From IMG/VR virus record IMGVR_UViG_2563366939_000005: a stretch of 5,932 nucleotides of DNA. One strand, given 5' to 3'. The translations under genes and the position numbers were made by a program. This document shows, one piece after another, positions 1-5,932 of this stretch (positions are counted from its first letter, which is position 1; every line of letters begins with the position of its first letter). The notes below the pieces were generated by a model. That model worked only from the letters and a program-made list of their open reading frames with translations. It ran no database searches and was not told where the DNA came from. The DNA comes from a virus (Duplodnaviria > Heunggongvirae > Uroviricota > Caudoviricetes).

Positions 1-218
1 GCGTTTAAATCAGCAAAAGACTTTGCGCTTCCGGTCAGAATATCGTGATGCATCAGGCCGGAAACGAGCTGGCTTAATTTCGGGTAATAACCAACCACCG
101 CCAGCCATTCCTGACCGGCGTTTTTACCGCTTTCAGCTCTCTTTTTCTCGTGGAGAATAAACTGAAAGCTGTCACTGGTAACGACATAACGTTCGCCAAT
201 TTCAATACGAATACTCAT
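1..218 (-). CDS. Conserved phage early protein, N-terminal 72 codons only (possibly P2 Orf83-like); continues past window start
   Basis: Hand translation of the reverse strand from ATG at 218..216 gives MSIRIEIGERYVVTSDSFQFILHEKKRAESGKNAGQEWLAVVGYYPKLSQLVSGLMHHDILTGSAKSFADLN with no stop before position 1. The ATG overlaps the stop of the upstream TraR-like gene (ATGA). Absent from the ORF track because it has no stop in the window. It does not resemble the P2 A protein N-terminus as I recall it. Confidence 0.55.
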   Translation of the reverse strand, partial: MSIRIEIGERYVVTSDSFQFILHEKKRAESGKNAGQEWLAVVGYYPKLSQLVSGLMHHDILTGSAKSFADLN

Positions 219-439
219 GCCGTTCTCCGGTAATGTTTGTTTTTTGCTTCAAAGACTGACTGGCAGGAAACACAACGCGTGGCTGACGGATAAGCCGCAC
301 GACGGGCAGCAGGTATTGGCGCGTCACACTCTTCGCAAACCAGCGCAGAAGCACCGCAATGTTTTACCCTTGCCGCGTTAATCTGGCGCTCCAGTAATTC
401 AGCCTGTTGTTCCTGAATAAAATCTACGTTGCCCGGCAT
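215..439 (-). CDS. TraR/DksA-family C4 zinc-finger protein (P2 Orf82-like)
   Basis: 74 aa with two CxxC pairs (CEEC and CVSC) in the spacing typical of the TraR/DksA zinc ribbon. ATG at 439..437 preceded by AAGGA. Its start overlaps the stop of the upstream ORF (TAATG). Confidence 0.8.
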   Translation of the reverse strand: MPGNVDFIQEQQAELLERQINAARVKHCGASALVCEECDAPIPAARRAAYPSATRCVSCQSVFEAKNKHYRRTA

Positions 440-729
440 TACCAGTTCCTTTTGTCGTTCAGTTTCTTAAATTCATCAGCGCAATAGCTGGTGACTTCTG
501 TCGTTAATTTTGTCAGTTCATCCACGGAGGAAATTTGCTTATGAAATACAGCGCGTTTAACAAGTAAATTGACCACATCAGATAGGAGATTTAATTTATC
601 CGCATAAATGGCTATAGTTGATTCCACCATATCCCCAGTGTTTTTATCGCGTTTAATATCAGCTAGCGACAAATCACCATTTTTCATAACTGAAATCTTC
701 AACCAGTTATTAAGCAATATACTTTTCAT
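439..729 (-). CDS. Hypothetical small protein, 96 aa, AT-rich; candidate prophage accessory (moron) gene
   Basis: Uninterrupted ORF starting at ATG 729..727, coupled by ATGA overlap to the ORF upstream and by TAATG to the TraR-like gene downstream. GC about 35% by hand count (103 of 291), clearly below the flanking phage genes. No recognisable motif. Confidence 0.6.
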   Translation of the reverse strand: MKSILLNNWLKISVMKNGDLSLADIKRDKNTGDMVESTIAIYADKLNLLSDVVNLLVKRAVFHKQISSVDELTKLTTEVTSYCADEFKKLNDKRNW

Positions 730-971
730 TCGCTATATGCCCTCTCCGCAGAATCAATCATTTCCCGGCCATTATCGGTAATACAGAAACCTTCTCTTGA
801 TTTGGTCACAAGCCCCCATTTCCCCATTGCTATAAATGCTTTTTCCACACGACTAGGCCAGGAGTGGAAGACATCGCTTGAAGGATGTAGTGGAGTCTTG
901 TCATCTAATTTTTTAAGTAATGAAAGTTGATAATCCGTTAAGCGTTTCCTGAACCATTTTGTATTTGTCAT
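726..971 (-). CDS. Hypothetical small protein, about 81 aa (possibly P2 Orf81-like)
   Basis: The ORF track entry 726..977 begins at a TTG. The ATG two codons in (971..969) has an AGGAAA Shine-Dalgarno about 7 nt upstream, so I place the start there. GC about 41%. Stop overlaps the next start (ATGA). Confidence 0.55.
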   Translation of the reverse strand: MTNTKWFRKRLTDYQLSLLKKLDDKTPLHPSSDVFHSWPSRVEKAFIAMGKWGLVTKSREGFCITDNGREMIDSAERAYSE

Positions 972-985
972 CTCCAACTTTCCTG

Positions 986-1198
986 TTATTTATTGAGTCC
1001 TAGATTATGGAATTTGGCAGACTCCTGACTGAGCAACTCGACTATCTCCACGCGGGATAACTCCGCCTTTGTGATGTGGCGAATCATGGCATCAAGATGA
1101 GACGAAAAGCGCGTTGCTGCGTCGGCCTGTGCTTCGGTTCTGGCCTGTTGCAGCATTAATGCGTATTTACCGCACTGATTTTCAGAAACTGTATGCAT
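986..1198 (-). CDS. Hypothetical small protein, 70 aa (P2 Orf80-like position)
   Basis: The ORF track entry 986..1231 begins at TTG inside a T8 run. The internal ATG at 1198..1196 is preceded by GGAGA with a 5-nt spacer, giving [18 protein letters not shown].... Sits immediately after gene B as in P2. Confidence 0.6.
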
Positions 1199-1212
1199 GA
1201 CTTTCTCCAGGC

Positions 1213-1240
1213 AAAAAAAAGCCCCGCACAATTAAGTGCG
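1213..1240 (-). terminator. Possible weak intrinsic terminator or attenuator between B and the orf80-like gene
   Basis: On the minus strand a 5-bp stem (1240..1236 pairing with 1229..1225, loop AATTAA... read as TTAATT) is followed by GGGC and then eight T (1220..1213). The stem is short and the T-run is not immediately adjacent, so this is weak. Confidence 0.25.
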
Positions 1241-1261
1241 TTAAAAACTCTGGTTAATTAC

Positions 1262-1762
1262 TTAATGCAGATATTGCTCTGGTTTTACCGACGTCAGAAT
1301 TGTCGGTGCATACTCAAACAGGCTGAATAATTCACGTAATGCACGGAATAAAGCATCACGCCAGTAACATGACTCTTCATTAATTCGCCAGTATGGCTGG
1401 TTAAATTCTTTTTCTGTCAGTCGTGCGTGCATAAATAAAGTGCGACGCTGACTGACTGTTAAAAAACTAATATATGCATACTCACTTGCGCCAACCTGAC
1501 GGCGTTTTGAGAATGCCCCGCGCAATTCATCAATTGCACATACCAGTCGTTCACGTTCGACGTCGTTCATTTCTTCAAAACGCATCGTTGCGTGACGCTG
1601 TTTTAACTGCGCATGAAAGCAAACCGTTAGCCGTTCGCGTTCCATCATCTGATTATAATAATCGCATGTCTCCTGCCAGCGAGGGACGGCCAGATGCTTA
1701 CCAATTATCCGGCGCATAGTTGCTGGCTGTTTTTCAACGAGATTGAGCGTCATCACTGTCAT
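1262..1762 (-). CDS. B: P2-type replication protein B
   Basis: 166 aa, the same length as P2 gene B product. The translation (…RLTVCFHAQLKQRHATMRFEEMNDVERERLVCAIDELRGAFSKRRQVGASEYAYISFL…YAPTILTSVKPEQYLH) matches my recollection of P2 B closely. ATG at 1762 overlaps the upstream stop (ATGA). Confidence 0.85.
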   Translation of the reverse strand: MTVMTLNLVEKQPATMRRIIGKHLAVPRWQETCDYYNQMMERERLTVCFHAQLKQRHATMRFEEMNDVERERLVCAIDELRGAFSKRRQVGASEYAYISFLTVSQRRTLFMHARLTEKEFNQPYWRINEESCYWRDALFRALRELFSLFEYAPTILTSVKPEQYLH

Positions 1763-1929
1763 TTCCAGACCCTCCGGCTTTTCAGAAAGGTCAGAGCCTT
1801 TTTTAACGGACTCTGTTTTTTGGTACGGATAATGATTCCCTTACGTCCCTTCCCGTGGGTGATGGTGAAGTCAATCGCCCTGGGGCTTTCGTTACGCAAT
1901 AACTGAGCAATACAACGCGGCTCATTCAT
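1759..1929 (-). CDS. Small basic protein, 56 aa (P2 orf78-like position between cox and B)
   Basis: The ORF track gives 1759..1995 (78 aa), but that start would overlap the cox 3' end by 56 nt. The in-frame ATG at 1929..1927 lies 10 nt after the cox stop and has AAGGTGGA about 5 nt upstream. C-terminus is very Lys/Arg-rich (GKGRKGIIIRTKKQSPLKKALTFLKSRRVWK). Confidence 0.45.
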   Translation of the reverse strand: MNEPRCIAQLLRNESPRAIDFTITHGKGRKGIIIRTKKQSPLKKALTFLKSRRVWK

Positions 1930-1939
1930 CCTTTCCACC

Positions 1940-2311
1940 TTAAGCCGCACGGCCATGTCTTGATTTGCTGTAACTAATGCGATTTTTCCAGTCATGCCAC
2001 TCGGTCGGAGCCTCTTCGACTAGTTGTGCCGCATACTTATCCCACTCACGACGATTTACCCATAATTCAGCTTTCCCTCTTGGTTTTAATGGGTCTGTCA
2101 TATAGAAGGCTGGCAGCTTTCCCGCTTTAGCCATTTCAGCCACCGCGCGTGGTGTCTTACCGATGTAAAGAGCAAACCCCTCTTTCGACAGCAAATCTGA
2201 TGGGCGCTCTGAAATCTGAATGCTTTTGCGTTTGGCTTCGTTTTCGAAACTTGCCTCATCGCTAGTTTGACAAGAAATTTCTACATTTGTCGTCACTTTG
2301 CTATCCTCCAT
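1940..2311 (-). CDS. cox: Cox-family excisionase / early-promoter repressor
   Basis: Residues about 40-110 (GFALYIGKTPRAVAEMAKAGKLPAFYMTDPLKPRGKAELWV…WHDW) align with P2 Cox as I recall it (FAKLIGKSTGAVRRMIDKGKLPVIDMTDP…). First gene of the minus-strand operon, divergent from C. Start is uncertain: ATG at 2311, or GTG at 2296 which has a GGAGGA Shine-Dalgarno at ideal 7-nt spacing. Confidence 0.8.
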   Translation of the reverse strand: MEDSKVTTNVEISCQTSDEASFENEAKRKSIQISERPSDLLSKEGFALYIGKTPRAVAEMAKAGKLPAFYMTDPLKPRGKAELWVNRREWDKYAAQLVEEAPTEWHDWKNRISYSKSRHGRAA

Positions 2312-2411
2312 AAGATTTGTAATTCACCAACTGGAGCCATCTAGAGCCTTTTTGAGTGCATCACAAATTGCCAAGTGGCCATATAATTGGAGATTAGCAA
2401 AATTATGTCAA
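2312..2411. promoter_or_regulatory. Divergent lysis-lysogeny switch region between cox and C (candidate promoters and operator repeats)
   Basis: About 93 bp between the divergent cox and C starts. Minus strand has a consensus -35 TTGACA (2411..2406, overlapping the C start codon), a 17-nt spacer and a -10-like AATTAT (2388..2383). A 9-bp direct repeat TNGAGCCNT occurs at 2332..2340 and 2342..2350, one helical turn apart. Plus strand has TATAAT at 2382..2387 without a well-spaced -35. Confidence 0.4.
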
Positions 2412-2704
2412 GTGAACAAAGCGAGAAATTAAAGCTCATCCGTGAATCCGAACGCCTTAAAACTAAGGAACTTGCTGAATTAATTGGAATTAATTACTAC
2501 ACATATCATGGATATGAATCAGGGAAATCAAAAATGCCTATGGAAGCAGGTATGAAGCTGTTTAAGCATCCACGCTTTCGCAAGTATCGTGACTGGTTCA
2601 TGTTTGATGAAATAGATCCCGAAGCTGGACAAATAGCCCCGGCTCTCGCACACATTGGGCAAGACTCAACAACCTTGCACCACTCAGACCAAAAGACTGG
2701 CTGA
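2405..2704 (+). CDS. C: P2 C-type immunity repressor
   Basis: The ORF track entry starts at TTG 2387; the ATG at 2405 gives a 99-aa product, the size of P2 C. The C-terminal third (…DEIDPEAGQIAPALAHIGQDSTTLHHSDQKTG) matches the conserved P2 C region as I recall it. Immediately upstream of int on the same strand, as in P2. Confidence 0.85.
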   Translation: MSSEQSEKLKLIRESERLKTKELAELIGINYYTYHGYESGKSKMPMEAGMKLFKHPRFRKYRDWFMFDEIDPEAGQIAPALAHIGQDSTTLHHSDQKTG

Positions 2705-2797
2705 CGATTTATTCAGCATATGTGTGCAGTAAATGTACGAAAGAAAATTGCATTAATTTTCAAGTAGTAGAAGTAAACAGCGTCATCGGAGGGCTTT

Positions 2798-3793
2798 ATG
2801 TCTATTAAAAAGCTCGATGATGGTCGTTATGAAGTGGACGTCAGACCGCAGGGTACAGATGGAAAACGTATCAGGCGGAAATTTAAAACTAAGGGTGAAG
2901 CTCAAGCATTCGAACGTCATGTACTGGTTAACTACCACAACAAAGAGTGGTTGGAGAAGCCAGCCGACCGCCGAACTCTTACAGAGTTGTTAGGCAGATG
3001 GTGGATATATCACGGAAAATCACATGAGCGTGGAGATATTGAACGGGGGCGTTTGACGACAATAATCGCCAAATTTGCAGAAATGGGAGTATCCAGAGCT
3101 GACCAGCTAACAAAGAAAACGATAACTGATTATCGCGTTGTAATGATGAACGATGGTCTAAAACCAGCCAGCGTAAATCGGCATCTGGCAATAATGAGCG
3201 GGATGTTCACCAAATTAATTGACGCCGGTGAATACCACTCTCACAACCCGTTCCGTGAGGTTAAGCGGTTACGTGAAGCTGTTACGGAAATGGCTTTTTT
3301 GTCCAGTGAAGAGATTACGCGGCTGTTATCCATGCTTGATGGTGATGAATTAAATGCGACTCTGGTCTGCCTTTCTACTGGTGGACGCTGGAGTGAAGTG
3401 TCTAATTTAAAAGCTGAACACATCATTAACCAGATGGTTACGTTTATGAAAACTAAAAACGGAAAGCGCAGGACAATTCCCGTTTCGCCGGACTTGATTA
3501 AACGGATCAAGACCAAAAATTCAGGCAGGCTTTTTAATGCCAGTTACTACAAAGTGCGCAACGCTCTCAGGGAAGTAAAACCCGATTTACCTGACGGACA
3601 GGCAGTGCATGTTTTGAGGCATACATTTGCCACACATTTTATAATGAATGGAGGTAACATAATCACATTGCAGCGCATCCTGGGTCATTCTAACATTCAG
3701 CAAACTATGACCTACGCACACTTTGCACCGGATTTCTTACAAGATGCTGTGACTCTTAACCCGGTGTCAGGAATGTCCATAATGCGTCCATAA
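2798..3793 (+). CDS. int: Tyrosine recombinase, P2-type phage integrase
   Basis: 331 aa with ATG preceded by GGAGGG. Catalytic signature present: box I Arg (LSTGGRWSEV), HxxR (HVLRHTFATHF) and the nucleophile Tyr (LGHSNIQQTMTYAHF). N-terminus MSIKKLDDGRYEVDVRP resembles P2 Int (MAIKKLDDGRYEVDIRP as recalled). Confidence 0.95.
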   Translation: MSIKKLDDGRYEVDVRPQGTDGKRIRRKFKTKGEAQAFERHVLVNYHNKEWLEKPADRRTLTELLGRWWIYHGKSHERGDIERGRLTTIIAKFAEMGVSRADQLTKKTITDYRVVMMNDGLKPASVNRHLAIMSGMFTKLIDAGEYHSHNPFREVKRLREAVTEMAFLSSEEITRLLSMLDGDELNATLVCLSTGGRWSEVSNLKAEHIINQMVTFMKTKNGKRRTIPVSPDLIKRIKTKNSGRLFNASYYKVRNALREVKPDLPDGQAVHVLRHTFATHFIMNGGNIITLQRILGHSNIQQTMTYAHFAPDFLQDAVTLNPVSGMSIMRP

Positions 3794-3824: not shown

Positions 3825-4622
3825 ATGAGTAATTTAACTAATTGTAATACAACAGAAAATACCGCTGCGGCGGGAGCTACCAAGTCAGTTATTGGTCGCA
3901 TTCACTCCTTTGAATCCTGTGGAACCGTAGACGGCCCGGGTATTCGCTTTATCACCTTTTTCCAGGGCTGCCTGATGCGCTGCCTGTATTGTCATAACCG
4001 CGACACCTGGGATACGCATGGCGGTAAAGAAGTTACCGTTGAAGATTTAATGAAGGAAGTGGTGACCTATCGCCACTTTATGAACGCTTCCGGCGGCGGC
4101 GTTACCGCATCCGGCGGTGAAGCAATCCTACAAGCCGAGTTCGTTCGCGACTGGTTCCGCGCCTGCAAAAAAGAAGGCATTCATACCTGTCTGGACACTA
4201 ACGGTTTTGTTCGTCGTTACGATCCAGTAATTGATGAACTTCTGGAAGTGACCGACCTGGTAATGCTCGATCTCAAACAGATGAACGACGAAATCCACCA
4301 GAATCTGGTAGGCGTTTCCAACCATCGTACACTCGAGTTTGCTAAATATCTGGCGAACAAAAATGTGAAAGTCTGGATACGTTATGTCGTAGTACCTGGC
4401 TGGTCTGACGATGACGATTCAGCTCATCGCCTCGGTGAATTTACTCGCGATATGGGTAACGTCGAAAAAATCGAGCTCCTCCCCTACCATGAGTTAGGCA
4501 AACATAAGTGGGTGGCGATGGGCGAAGAGTACAAACTCGACGGTGTGAAACCACCGAAAAAAGAAACCATGGAGCGAGTGAAAGGGATTCTTGAGCAATA
4601 TGGTCATAAAGTGATGTTCTAA
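3825..4622 (+). CDS. pflA: Pyruvate formate-lyase activating enzyme (radical SAM glycyl-radical activase)
   Basis: Radical-SAM CxxxCxxC motif (CLMRCLYC) and a glycine-rich SAM-binding stretch. From codon 21 onward the translation matches E. coli PflA as I recall it ([40 protein letters not shown]… to …[11 protein letters not shown]). The 5' end given is the only in-frame ATG; see the finding on the start codon. Confidence 0.95.
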
Positions 4623-4672
4623 AACATCATGTGCAGGCTGAATTTCGACCTGCCTCCCCTTCCTTTAGTAGT

Positions 4673-4715
4673 AAAAAGTAAATCAGCGTTGAGAACATGC
4701 TCGACGCTGATTTAC
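4673..4715 (-). terminator. Intrinsic terminator in the convergent pflA/OMP intergenic region (mainly serves the minus-strand gene; may also stop pflA)
   Basis: Perfect 11-bp inverted repeat GTAAATCAGCG (4678..4688) with CGCTGATTTAC (4705..4715), extendable to about 16 bp with one G-U pair, loop AACATG. On the minus strand it is followed directly by five T (4677..4673). On the plus strand the T-tract is weaker and displaced. Confidence 0.55.
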
Positions 4716-4756: not shown

Positions 4757-5932
4757 TTACCAGTCGGCGTAAGGTATCAGCGGCTGCGGCGGTAAATCCA
4801 TGTCGCCCTGCCATCCGGCGGCGGAATACCGCACGTAGAGCAGGAAATGGCTGGGTGCGTAATCTTTCGCCTGCTGGATATCAATTGCCGTGCCGACAAA
4901 CCAGTTGGACGTGACGCGACGCTCAAGTAACGCCCGCGCCGTGTAGCCAAAGCCCTGACTGCTGCCGCCGGCGTTGGTCTGGCTGGCGGCATCCTCTTTC
5001 CAGTCCGTCGGGATCAGGTTCATCAGCGGATAACGCGGCATGGTTTTGGTGCGTGAATGCGACCACGAGCCAGACGCGCCCAGCTCCCACGACCAGTTTT
5101 CCGTCCGCTCCCGCCACATCACCGGTATGGCAAACGACAGGTATTCCTGCGGGCTGTAGTAACCGCCCTGACCGAGTGAGTAGCCACTCAGGTCTTTGTC
5201 GTAATGCCAGATCATGTTGTTCAGGCCGATTGTGACGCGGCGATTGTTCTGGTTGATGACCTTATAGTAATAGCCCGTCATCCAGCGCACGCGCCAGTTA
5301 TCTTCGACATTTTTACCGGTTAACTGGTCGCCGCTAAGCGATGCCCAGACGCCGTTCGCTTCACCTTTATCGTAGCTCAGACTTAGCCCCACGCCATCGG
5401 CACGCACACCGCCCCATTTTTTCCCGGTATTACCCGGGGAGTCTTTCTGTCCGCCGAAGGCCAGCAAGGAACTGGAGATGGGGCGACGATGGGCGTTAAC
5501 GGTGTAACCAAGCGGCCCGATATCGTCGCTGTAACTGATGCCGCCGACCACATCCACCACGTTGAAGCCCATCGGCGTGGTGCCGATATCCCAGCTCCAG
5601 ACGTCATTTCGCCAGCCGACCGCCACGCTGGCGCCGGAATCTGACTGGCTGCGGTTGCCGCTACAGTCCTGCAACGTACAGGTGCCCCAGTTGTTATCCC
5701 ATTTACCCTCAGCGTCGGCGGAAAAACTGCCGACGTTCATATTGACGAAATCACTGCGAAAGAACATCCGTCCGTCAGAATACGGTGCATCCACCTGCAA
5801 CATGGTGGTGTGCGCTTTCAGGTCGGAGTAACCACCGGTGCCGCTCGAGCCCCAGTAGTCGTGCTCAAGGGTGACGTTAAGATCCTGCTGGCGATAGAGA
5901 TCTGCCGCATCGCTGCGCACGCCGCGCTTCAG
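4757..5932 (-). CDS. Outer-membrane beta-barrel protein, C-terminal portion (resembles the BcsC-type polysaccharide exporter barrel); 5' end beyond window
   Basis: The frame is open from 5932 to the TAA at 4757..4759; the ORF track M at 5920 is a GTG inside a longer frame. Gly/Ser/aromatic-rich, barrel-like sequence ending in an aromatic residue (…PLIPYADW), typical of an OMP beta-signal. GC about 60-65% in the sampled 4757..4816. The BcsC assignment is from memory and tentative. Confidence 0.75.
   Translation of the reverse strand: MKRGVRSDAADLYRQQDLNVTLEHDYWGSSGTGGYSDLKAHTTMLQVDAPYSDGRMFFRSDFVNMNVGSFSADAEGKWDNNWGTCTLQDCSGNRSQSDSGASVAVGWRNDVWSWDIGTTPMGFNVVDVVGGISYSDDIGPLGYTVNAHRRPISSSLLAFGGQKDSPGNTGKKWGGVRADGVGLSLSYDKGEANGVWASLSGDQLTGKNVEDNWRVRWMTGYYYKVINQNNRRVTIGLNNMIWHYDKDLSGYSLGQGGYYSPQEYLSFAIPVMWRERTENWSWELGASGSWSHSRTKTMPRYPLMNLIPTDWKEDAASQTNAGGSSQGFGYTARALLERRVTSNWFVGTAIDIQQAKDYAPSHFLLYVRYSAAGWQGDMDLPPQPLIPYADW

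Follow-up and report, generated by a model that had tools for sequence, protein, structure and literature searches.

Core gene orf81 and an unrelated accessory gene lie side by side in the early operon of a P2-like prophage

We have analysed two small coupled genes on the minus strand of a P2-like prophage, and have found that both belong to the P2-type early (Pe) operon but are unrelated to each other and are not partners. The strongly AT-rich gene at 439..729 is, judged by its sequence and position, the P2 orf81 ortholog, and belongs to the core set of small early genes. The gene before it (726..971, called X in the following) is absent from P2, and we conclude from the comparisons below that it should be a genuine and selected, though dispensable, accessory gene. 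As for its product, the reading that we prefer, to which we give a probability of roughly 0.4, is a small basic protein with a predicted winged-helix fold, which may bind DNA and act as an accessory regulator in the early phase of phage growth.

Organization of the early operon

The window, i.e., the whole stretch of 5,932 nucleotides analysed here, runs from one end of a P2-like (Peduovirus) prophage, with the genes for immunity and early replication, into host DNA. In a megablast comparison with phage records, 75 P2-type records were matched at 90–99% identity. The repressor C gene (2387..2704), the integrase gene (2798..3793) and the host gene pflA are on the plus strand, and a bcsC-like gene is on the minus strand. 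The early genes are also on the minus strand, where cox (2311..1940, matching Phage_Cox), orf78 (between cox and B in gene order), B (1762..1262, 166 aa, 44.9% GC) and homologs of orf80, orf81, orf82 and orf83 can all be recognised. The P2-like early operon proposed in the initial annotation of this sequence is thus well founded.

The orf80 homolog (986..1198, 70 aa from the ATG at 1198) belongs to the DUF2732 family (PF10809, E 6e-9), and its C-terminal end is unlike that of P2 Orf80. It is followed by X, which encodes 81 aa from the ATG at 971 (726..971), or 83 aa if the TTG at 977 is the start (726..977), and then by the orf81 ortholog of the DUF5405 family (439..729), with 96 aa from an ATG start. 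The next gene (215..439, 74 aa) encodes the Orf82 homolog, a TraR/DksA-type C4 zinc-finger protein (PF01258, E 2.9e-11; TIGR02419, 76.1 bits against a cutoff of 59.7), which is 99% identical to P2 Orf82. The last one, at 3..218, is the 5' part of an orf83 homolog that runs off the window; its product is 100% identical to P2 Orf83 over 72 aa and matches PHROG 154 and PF17399 (E 9.8e-8), and by the latter match orf83 is a second, more distant DUF5405 paralog.

The P2 record lists four genes (orf80, orf81, orf82 and orf83) between B and A, while the window has five small ORFs there (orf80, X and orf81–83), exactly the difference that had been suspected before; the alignment of the B-to-A interval with P2 identifies 726..971 as the extra ORF. 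The overlaps by which the two small ORFs had been described as tied to their neighbours are both present in the sequence: an ATGA at 729..726 is shared by the X stop and the orf81 start, and a TAATG at 441..437 by the orf81 stop and the orf82 start. A further ATGA (218..215) connects orf82 and orf83. There is no overlap between orf80 and X, which are separated by a 14-nt spacer on the minus strand (972..985, CAGGAAAGTTGGAG) with a Shine-Dalgarno-like AGGA. Scanning for structured RNA in the window has given no Rfam match at the gathering score.

The sole sigma-70-like site upstream of the operon (2383..2411, minus strand; TTGACA-17-AATTAT, 10/12 matches) is at the position of P2 Pe, and a consensus scan has found no promoter near X. 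After B, the terminator scan has detected a terminator-like hairpin with a T run (1225..1240, minus strand). Both elements have counterparts in the annotation of the P2 record, namely Pe itself and, at the corresponding position, a putative rho-independent terminator. Since the hairpin stands after B, RNA polymerase has to pass it in order to transcribe the genes from orf80 to A. With a single upstream site at Pe and no promoter of its own, X would be made in lytic growth or induction alone, together with the replication genes. Such an expression pattern argues against an exclusion function that is expressed from the prophage. The superinfection exclusion mentioned in the initial annotation is thus unlikely, considering that no promoter-like site is near X, that the Pe operon is repressed, and that PADLOC gives nothing above noise.

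The AT-rich gene and P2 orf81

The protein encoded at 439..729 matches PF17399 with 91.6 bits (gathering cutoff 21.6; E 4e-26) and covers 88/88 profile positions. It also matches PHROG 265, whose label 'replication initiation protein' is an unverified database label only. As in P2, the gene is located after orf80 and before the TraR-like orf82, i.e., in the orthologous place, with X interposed between it and orf80. It is similar to P2 orf81 in position, in length class (96 vs 100 aa), in low GC content and in the C-terminal half of the protein, which is 96% identical. It differs from P2 orf81 in the N-terminal half, where about 48 residues are 60% identical (66.7% at the DNA level), and its start is displaced relative to P2 because X now precedes it.

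The GC contents of about 35% and 41% that had been counted by hand for the pair are reproduced by computation (35.4% for 439..729 and 41.1% for 726..971). The value of about 50% given for the flanking genes was overstated, as the neighbours have 45–52% (orf82 52.0%, orf80 47.4%) and the phage part has 44.2% overall, but the low GC of the pair stands. In fact, nowhere in the phage part is the GC content lower than in orf81: for 291-bp windows of 1..3793, the mean is 44.1% with a standard deviation of 3.6%, and the minimum of 35.4% is found at 438. However, since P2 orf81 itself has a GC content of only 37.3%, the low GC is a trait of the orf81 family and not a sign of insertion. That is, the AT-rich ORF turns out to be the conserved orf81-type core gene with similarly low GC, which the initial annotation had named as the result that would speak against its proposal, while 726..971 is not of this kind.

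We have also modelled the orf81 protein with AF2, using a 7-sequence alignment. The model (pLDDT 74) shows a 4-stranded sheet (residues 3–42) followed by two helices; it is the sheet that is encoded by the variable N-terminal allele, and the helices are nearly invariant. The predicted structure weakly resembles small nucleic-acid-binding folds. Searches against PDB sequences with phmmer and profiles gave no meaningful match, and the PADLOC search returned BrxC alone, with values (E 0.032, 9.8 bits) that do not rise above noise. P2 Orf80–83 are given as 'unknown' in a comparative paper (PMC3091744), and in the literature on DUF5405, DUF2732 and orf80–83 we have found no functional study.

Distribution of X

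To see how widely X occurs, we have searched genome, phage and protein collections. Among 5426 complete E. coli genomes, the orf80–82 region is present in 1672 and X in 54. That is, about 3% of the E. coli P2-like prophages carry X, and about 97% of the region-carrying genomes have orf81 without X. The 54 genomes with X are the same ones that carry the orf81 allele associated with it. We have further inspected a spread of 60 matches, the last three of which are partial, and every full-span locus without X among them is P2-type with a length of 813–816 bp. The loci in IMG/VR follow the two-state pattern as well, either with or without X. The idea that the orf80–orf81 junction is a multi-cargo hotspot was rejected for E. 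coli, where these two states alone were seen. As a side observation, a few loci are longer at this junction, and our guess is that they carry IS insertions.

Only two of 50,697 phage records contain X, namely the isolated, plaque-forming phages vB_YpM_115 and vB_YpM_117, which were plated on Yersinia. X was not found on plasmids. A profile search among 5.8 billion proteins has placed the whole family in 8 clusters, and in a phmmer search over 1.8 billion representatives, the sole more distant homologs are those of a Lelliottia-type branch. These homologs have 74 aa, are 43% identical to X, and come from prophages of Lelliottia and relatives. There they occupy the same slot directly after orf80, followed immediately by an orf83-like DUF5405 gene and then by A, and these prophages have neither orf81 nor the TraR-like orf82. 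In addition, one metagenomic contig carries the window-like N-terminal allele of orf81 directly after a P2-type orf80, without X. As X occurs without orf81 and orf81 without X, the two genes are not an obligate pair.

A mosaic block around X

When aligned with P2, the window differs from it in a block of about 435 bp (~585–1019, GC 37.9%), made up of the orf80 3' end, a 278-bp stretch (720..997) and about 145 nt of the 5' part of orf81. The borders are apparent from the identity values: 96.8% for 1020–1271, 68.2% for 998–1019, 40% for 720–997 (45 columns aligned and 233 with gaps), 66.7% for 585–719, and 95.9% for 440–584. The 278-bp stretch thus faces 45 poorly aligned P2 bases, giving a net gain of 233 bp. 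Yersinia phage vB_YpM_115 matches the whole stretch at 97.8–100% identity, and the block as such is present at 97.7% identity in both vB_YpM_115 and vB_YpM_117.

We have found no direct or inverted repeats of note flanking X. A transposon-like or site-specific insertion of X was rejected, as notable flanking repeats are lacking and the flanks are diverged alleles. Because of these diverged flanks without repeats, homologous recombination is favoured, and the better explanation is that X would have arrived with the mosaic block in this way and not by a clean insertion. The earlier suggestion of an inserted accessory gene is therefore right for 726..971, which P2 does not have, and wrong for the AT-rich 439..729.

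X is always linked to one C-terminal allele of orf80 and one N-terminal allele of orf81. On the immunity side, three or more C/cox types are found with it, and phage P2_4A7b has the immunity type of the window but no X, so the block assorts independently of the immunity module.

Predicted fold and possible function of X

Searches of X against Pfam, NCBIfam and PADLOC gave nothing above cutoff, and those against PDB sequences (phmmer and profile) gave no match at E < 0.3. The sub-threshold Pfam matches are all winged-helix families (HTH_45, Mrr_N and wHTH-PRTase_assc), with 14.4–15.6 bits against cutoffs of 25.5–29.5. The AF2 single-sequence model predicts an H-H-H-beta-beta-H arrangement with a pLDDT of 73 (51–55 for the other four models), and the Foldseek matches of this model at the top of the PDB list are again all winged-helix proteins (MotA N-terminal domain, MarR, MexR, CouR; TM 0.62–0.77, best E 9e-3), while nothing below E 0.01 was found in BFVD. 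All these fold and sequence matches of X are short of the conventional significance threshold. The structure prediction and Foldseek search that had been suggested for both proteins have thus given a winged-helix candidate for X, beside the weak resemblance described above for orf81.

Compared with MarR-type regulators (MexR 1lnw, CouR 6c9t, MepR 3eco), X shares the predicted winged-helix core (TM 0.66–0.76) and the generic 'G-L-V...G-x-x-I-T-x-x-G' pattern, which in the X family takes the conserved form G-[LY]-V...G-[FY]-C-I-T-x-x-G. It differs from them in being about 60 residues shorter, in lacking the dimerisation helices, and in showing no significant sequence similarity. A diverged copy of Cox was also considered for X, and was rejected with an hhalign probability of 0.6%.

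By hand count, the net charge of X is about +3 for the Escherichia type and about +8 for the Lelliottia type. The conserved positions include P39, S40, K/R41, V42, K44 and A45 at the start of helix 3, as well as K5 and K9. The basic charge, together with the conservation of the N-terminal arm and the helix 3 start, favours nucleic-acid binding. At the same time, the wing tip of the Lelliottia-type X is acidic (IEVDGG), which is unusual for a wing contacting DNA, and a candidate operator was not found beside X.

Taken with the predicted fold, these features suggest how X may work. X would be transcribed from Pe by read-through of the terminator after B, and translated from its own Shine-Dalgarno sequence, with the ATGA coupling it to orf81. 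In the modelled structure, it would bind DNA through helix 3 and the basic N-terminal arm, and it may serve as an early regulator or as a DNA-binding accessory factor of lytic development.

A different function is suggested by the resemblance of X to MotA, namely that X is a stand-alone relative of the MotA N-terminal domain, contacts host RNA polymerase through sigma-70 region 4 or another subunit, and helps, next to the TraR-like Orf82, in the takeover of the host. The first Foldseek match of X in the PDB is 1bja_A, the activation domain of T4 MotA (E 9e-3, TM 0.72, 80/81 residues), and 6k4y_M of the sigma appropriation complex is also listed. PHROG 1345, labelled 'MotA-like activator', matches the window X at E 0.0033 over residues 44–82. 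We further aligned the MotA N-terminal domains of five phage records, and an hhalign comparison of this alignment with the X family gave a probability of 82% and a score of 33.0 over 38 columns (wing plus last helix) at 34% identity. This score is above those of 200 column shuffles (mean 9.8, maximum 15.3) and of the winged-helix controls, E. coli MarR (14.8, probability 0.8%) and the window Cox (13.5). It also fits this reading that the Lelliottia-type X stands where P2 has orf81 and the RNA-polymerase-binding, TraR-like orf82. X is similar to the T4 domain in size and in the predicted helix-helix-helix-beta hairpin-helix topology, but it is a stand-alone protein of 81 aa without the C-terminal DNA-binding domain, in a temperate P2-like and not a T4-like phage.

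However, the similarity covers the wing and the last helix alone, and the Escherichia-type sequence alone: PHROG 1345 gives E 0.081 with the sequence P0001 and no match with the Lelliottia type, and hhalign of the Lelliottia-type X alone against MotA yields a probability of 2%. The Pfam family of the MotA activation domain does not match X at E <= 0.1, and the TM scores of MarR-family folds are as high or higher. By hand count, the MotA N-terminal domain is about neutral, unlike the basic X, and MotA helix 1 has no counterpart in X. For its sigma-70 target to be exposed, MotA depends on AsiA, and the Pfam and PHROG scans returned no match named AsiA among the ORFs of the window. The resemblance is thus a weak lead, although it has come up repeatedly, and it is limited to one half of one branch of X, so that the MotA-like function is unlikely. 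A more specific form of it, in which X docks on RNA polymerase without AsiA or a DNA-binding domain, retunes early transcription, and replaces Orf82 in the Lelliottia-type phages, is quite improbable. Nevertheless, the MotA N-terminal domain binds protein and not DNA, and since it is the closest to X by three tests, this counts against the DNA-binding reading that we prefer.

X as a counter-defence, passenger or paired gene

Genes that counter host defences are in general rare, patchy, fast-evolving, AT-rich, early and dispensable. X shows these hallmarks: it is rare and patchy, dispensable, located in the early operon, AT-rich (41% and 36% GC in the two types), and fast-evolving (its dN between these types is 0.6–0.68, that of orf80 0.49 and that of B 0.08). 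It may thus be imagined as an anti-defence factor against host immunity, or as a factor of competition with other phages or with a P4-like satellite. On the other hand, X resembles no known anti-defence protein in the Foldseek searches of the PDB and BFVD, a basic winged helix is atypical of DNA-mimic inhibitors, and its slot is two-state instead of a diverse hotspot. The accessory hotspots of P2 are at old/tin, between A and Q, and at Z/fun. Like their cargo, X is an accessory gene that is variable and AT-rich and is exchanged irrespective of the immunity module; however, its place is between orf80 and orf81, within the operon for early replication, it has two states in E. coli and not many cargoes, and it would be expressed from Pe and not from the prophage. 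The P2 defence hotspot described by Rousset et al. 2022 (PMC9122126) is elsewhere, between gpA and gpQ next to cos. Overall, we consider a counter-defence role rather unlikely.

We have then asked whether X is a functional gene at all, or a neutral or decaying passenger ORF. Its family is tiny and most relatives lack it, as described above, and damaged copies do exist: those designated P0002–P0006 are truncated or frameshifted, and at three E. albertii loci (L014, L017 and L037) X can be aligned over residues 1–62 alone, at 74%. Because several database copies are truncated or frameshifted, and because about 97% of the relatives are without X, the gene should be dispensable in prophages. Yet the dN/dS between two Lelliottia-type homologs is 0.25 at a dS of 0.44 (0.29 for orf80), 28 positions are invariant across the family in spite of its 43%-identical homologs, and the same slot is used in two phage lineages. 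In addition, the main cluster with 103 member sequences and the copies in the two isolated phages are intact. X is annotated as an 81-aa protein in RefSeq and in the Yersinia phage records, and PHROG 11056 matches it over 81/81 positions (E 3.7e-58) and also recovers the Lelliottia-type homologs (E 6e-17 and 4e-16). The dN/dS value, the invariant positions and the intact copies point to a gene under purifying selection and make a mere passenger improbable.

The possibility that X and orf81 form a functional two-gene module, e.g., a toxin-antitoxin-like or exclusion pair, as the initial annotation had considered, is highly improbable: although the ATGA overlap couples the two genes translationally and the Escherichia-type X always comes with one orf81 N-terminal allele (96–100% identical in about 30 loci) in the same 54 genomes, this linkage is due to one shared recombination block, and the co-occurrence fails in the Lelliottia-type phages, in the large majority of region-carrying E. 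coli and in the metagenomic contig described above, while no toxin, antitoxin or defence family is matched.

Implications

The preferred reading, an accessory winged-helix regulator encoded next to a core gene, is accompanied by a correction on how GC content is used in such operons. Low GC had been read as the mark of insertion, but here the ORF with more AT belongs to the core, and it is the one with less AT that is the newcomer. The comparison has also shown that P2-like phages have, in their replication operon, a small slot of variable content behind orf80, which is previously undescribed and is separate from the cargo hotspot between A and Q.

The practical value is modest. X, a tiny orphan family (PHROG 11056), can be approached in a tractable test system, since vB_YpM_115 and vB_YpM_117 carry it and near-isogenic relatives are without it. 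If X is merely a small DNA-binding regulator, the case would be one of routine phage mosaicism. If the likeness to MotA is true, a temperate phage would have in X a minimal factor directed at sigma or RNA polymerase, and the MotA-type module, known only from T4-like lytic phages, would extend to the temperate Peduoviridae.

The prophage junction and its host

The prophage junction falls at the very start of the host pflA gene (window 3825-3890), and pflA and pflB are split apart by the prophage. In prophage-free E. coli the native start of pflA reads GCA ATG TCA GTT, while the window has ACC AAG TCA GTT, with AAG (3883-3885) replacing the native ATG. There is an in-frame ATG upstream at 3825, within the phage-side DNA, from which PflA would gain a 19-residue N-terminal extension (265 versus 246 aa).

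Adjoining pflA is a bcsC-like outer-membrane cellulose-synthase gene (4757-5920). Of 5426 complete E. coli genomes, no more than 10 match at least 80% of the host stretch that carries it, and most E. coli show only 90-95% identity to it, so the host should belong to an unusual lineage, or else bear an uncommon second bcs locus.

Immunity type and the DUF5405 paralogs

The immunity type of the window is different from that of P2. Its Cox (1940-2311) has 123 aa versus 91 aa in P2, with an identity of only 38%, while the C proteins are 51% identical. Peduovirus P2_4A7b has the immunity type of the window in common at 97-98% and lacks X, the extra small early ORF between orf80 and orf81. In the same early region, DUF5405 paralogs stand on both sides of orf82 (window 3-439), a TraR/DksA-type zinc-finger gene, namely orf81 (E 4e-26) and orf83 (E 1e-7). 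Such a bracketing pair points to an ancient duplication event on either side of a factor that binds RNA polymerase.

Related prophages

In L008, a locus of the same prophage type as the window, the known A-to-Q hotspot 3' of A, which lies outside the window, contains cargo (9304-11816): an ORF of 68 aa and the genes for a 150-aa DUF3850/ASCH protein and for two proteins (243 and 232 aa) with no Pfam match. Another related locus, L009, has ~0.8-1.0 kb of additional DNA between orf80 and A (6754-8779), and the same is seen in IMG/VR at three loci with X and one without it; in these cases A or orf83 is split. Judging by its size, the additional DNA may be an IS insertion.

Among the 54 X-carrying E. 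coli chromosomes, many have a RefSeq record that stops 736 bp past the query (e.g., NZ_CP146507.1, NZ_CP047600.1, and NZ_AP024123.1), a point that by arithmetic falls immediately ahead of where phage gene A begins. It seems that these assemblies were rotated so that the prophage replication gene comes first, this gene probably being wrongly taken for a replicon start gene.

Finally, in the prophage of Lelliottia sp. SL45 (locus L005), the B gene (4212-4712) is interrupted by an in-frame stop (…CFHA*LKQ…), and because of this stop the prophage is probably defective for replication.
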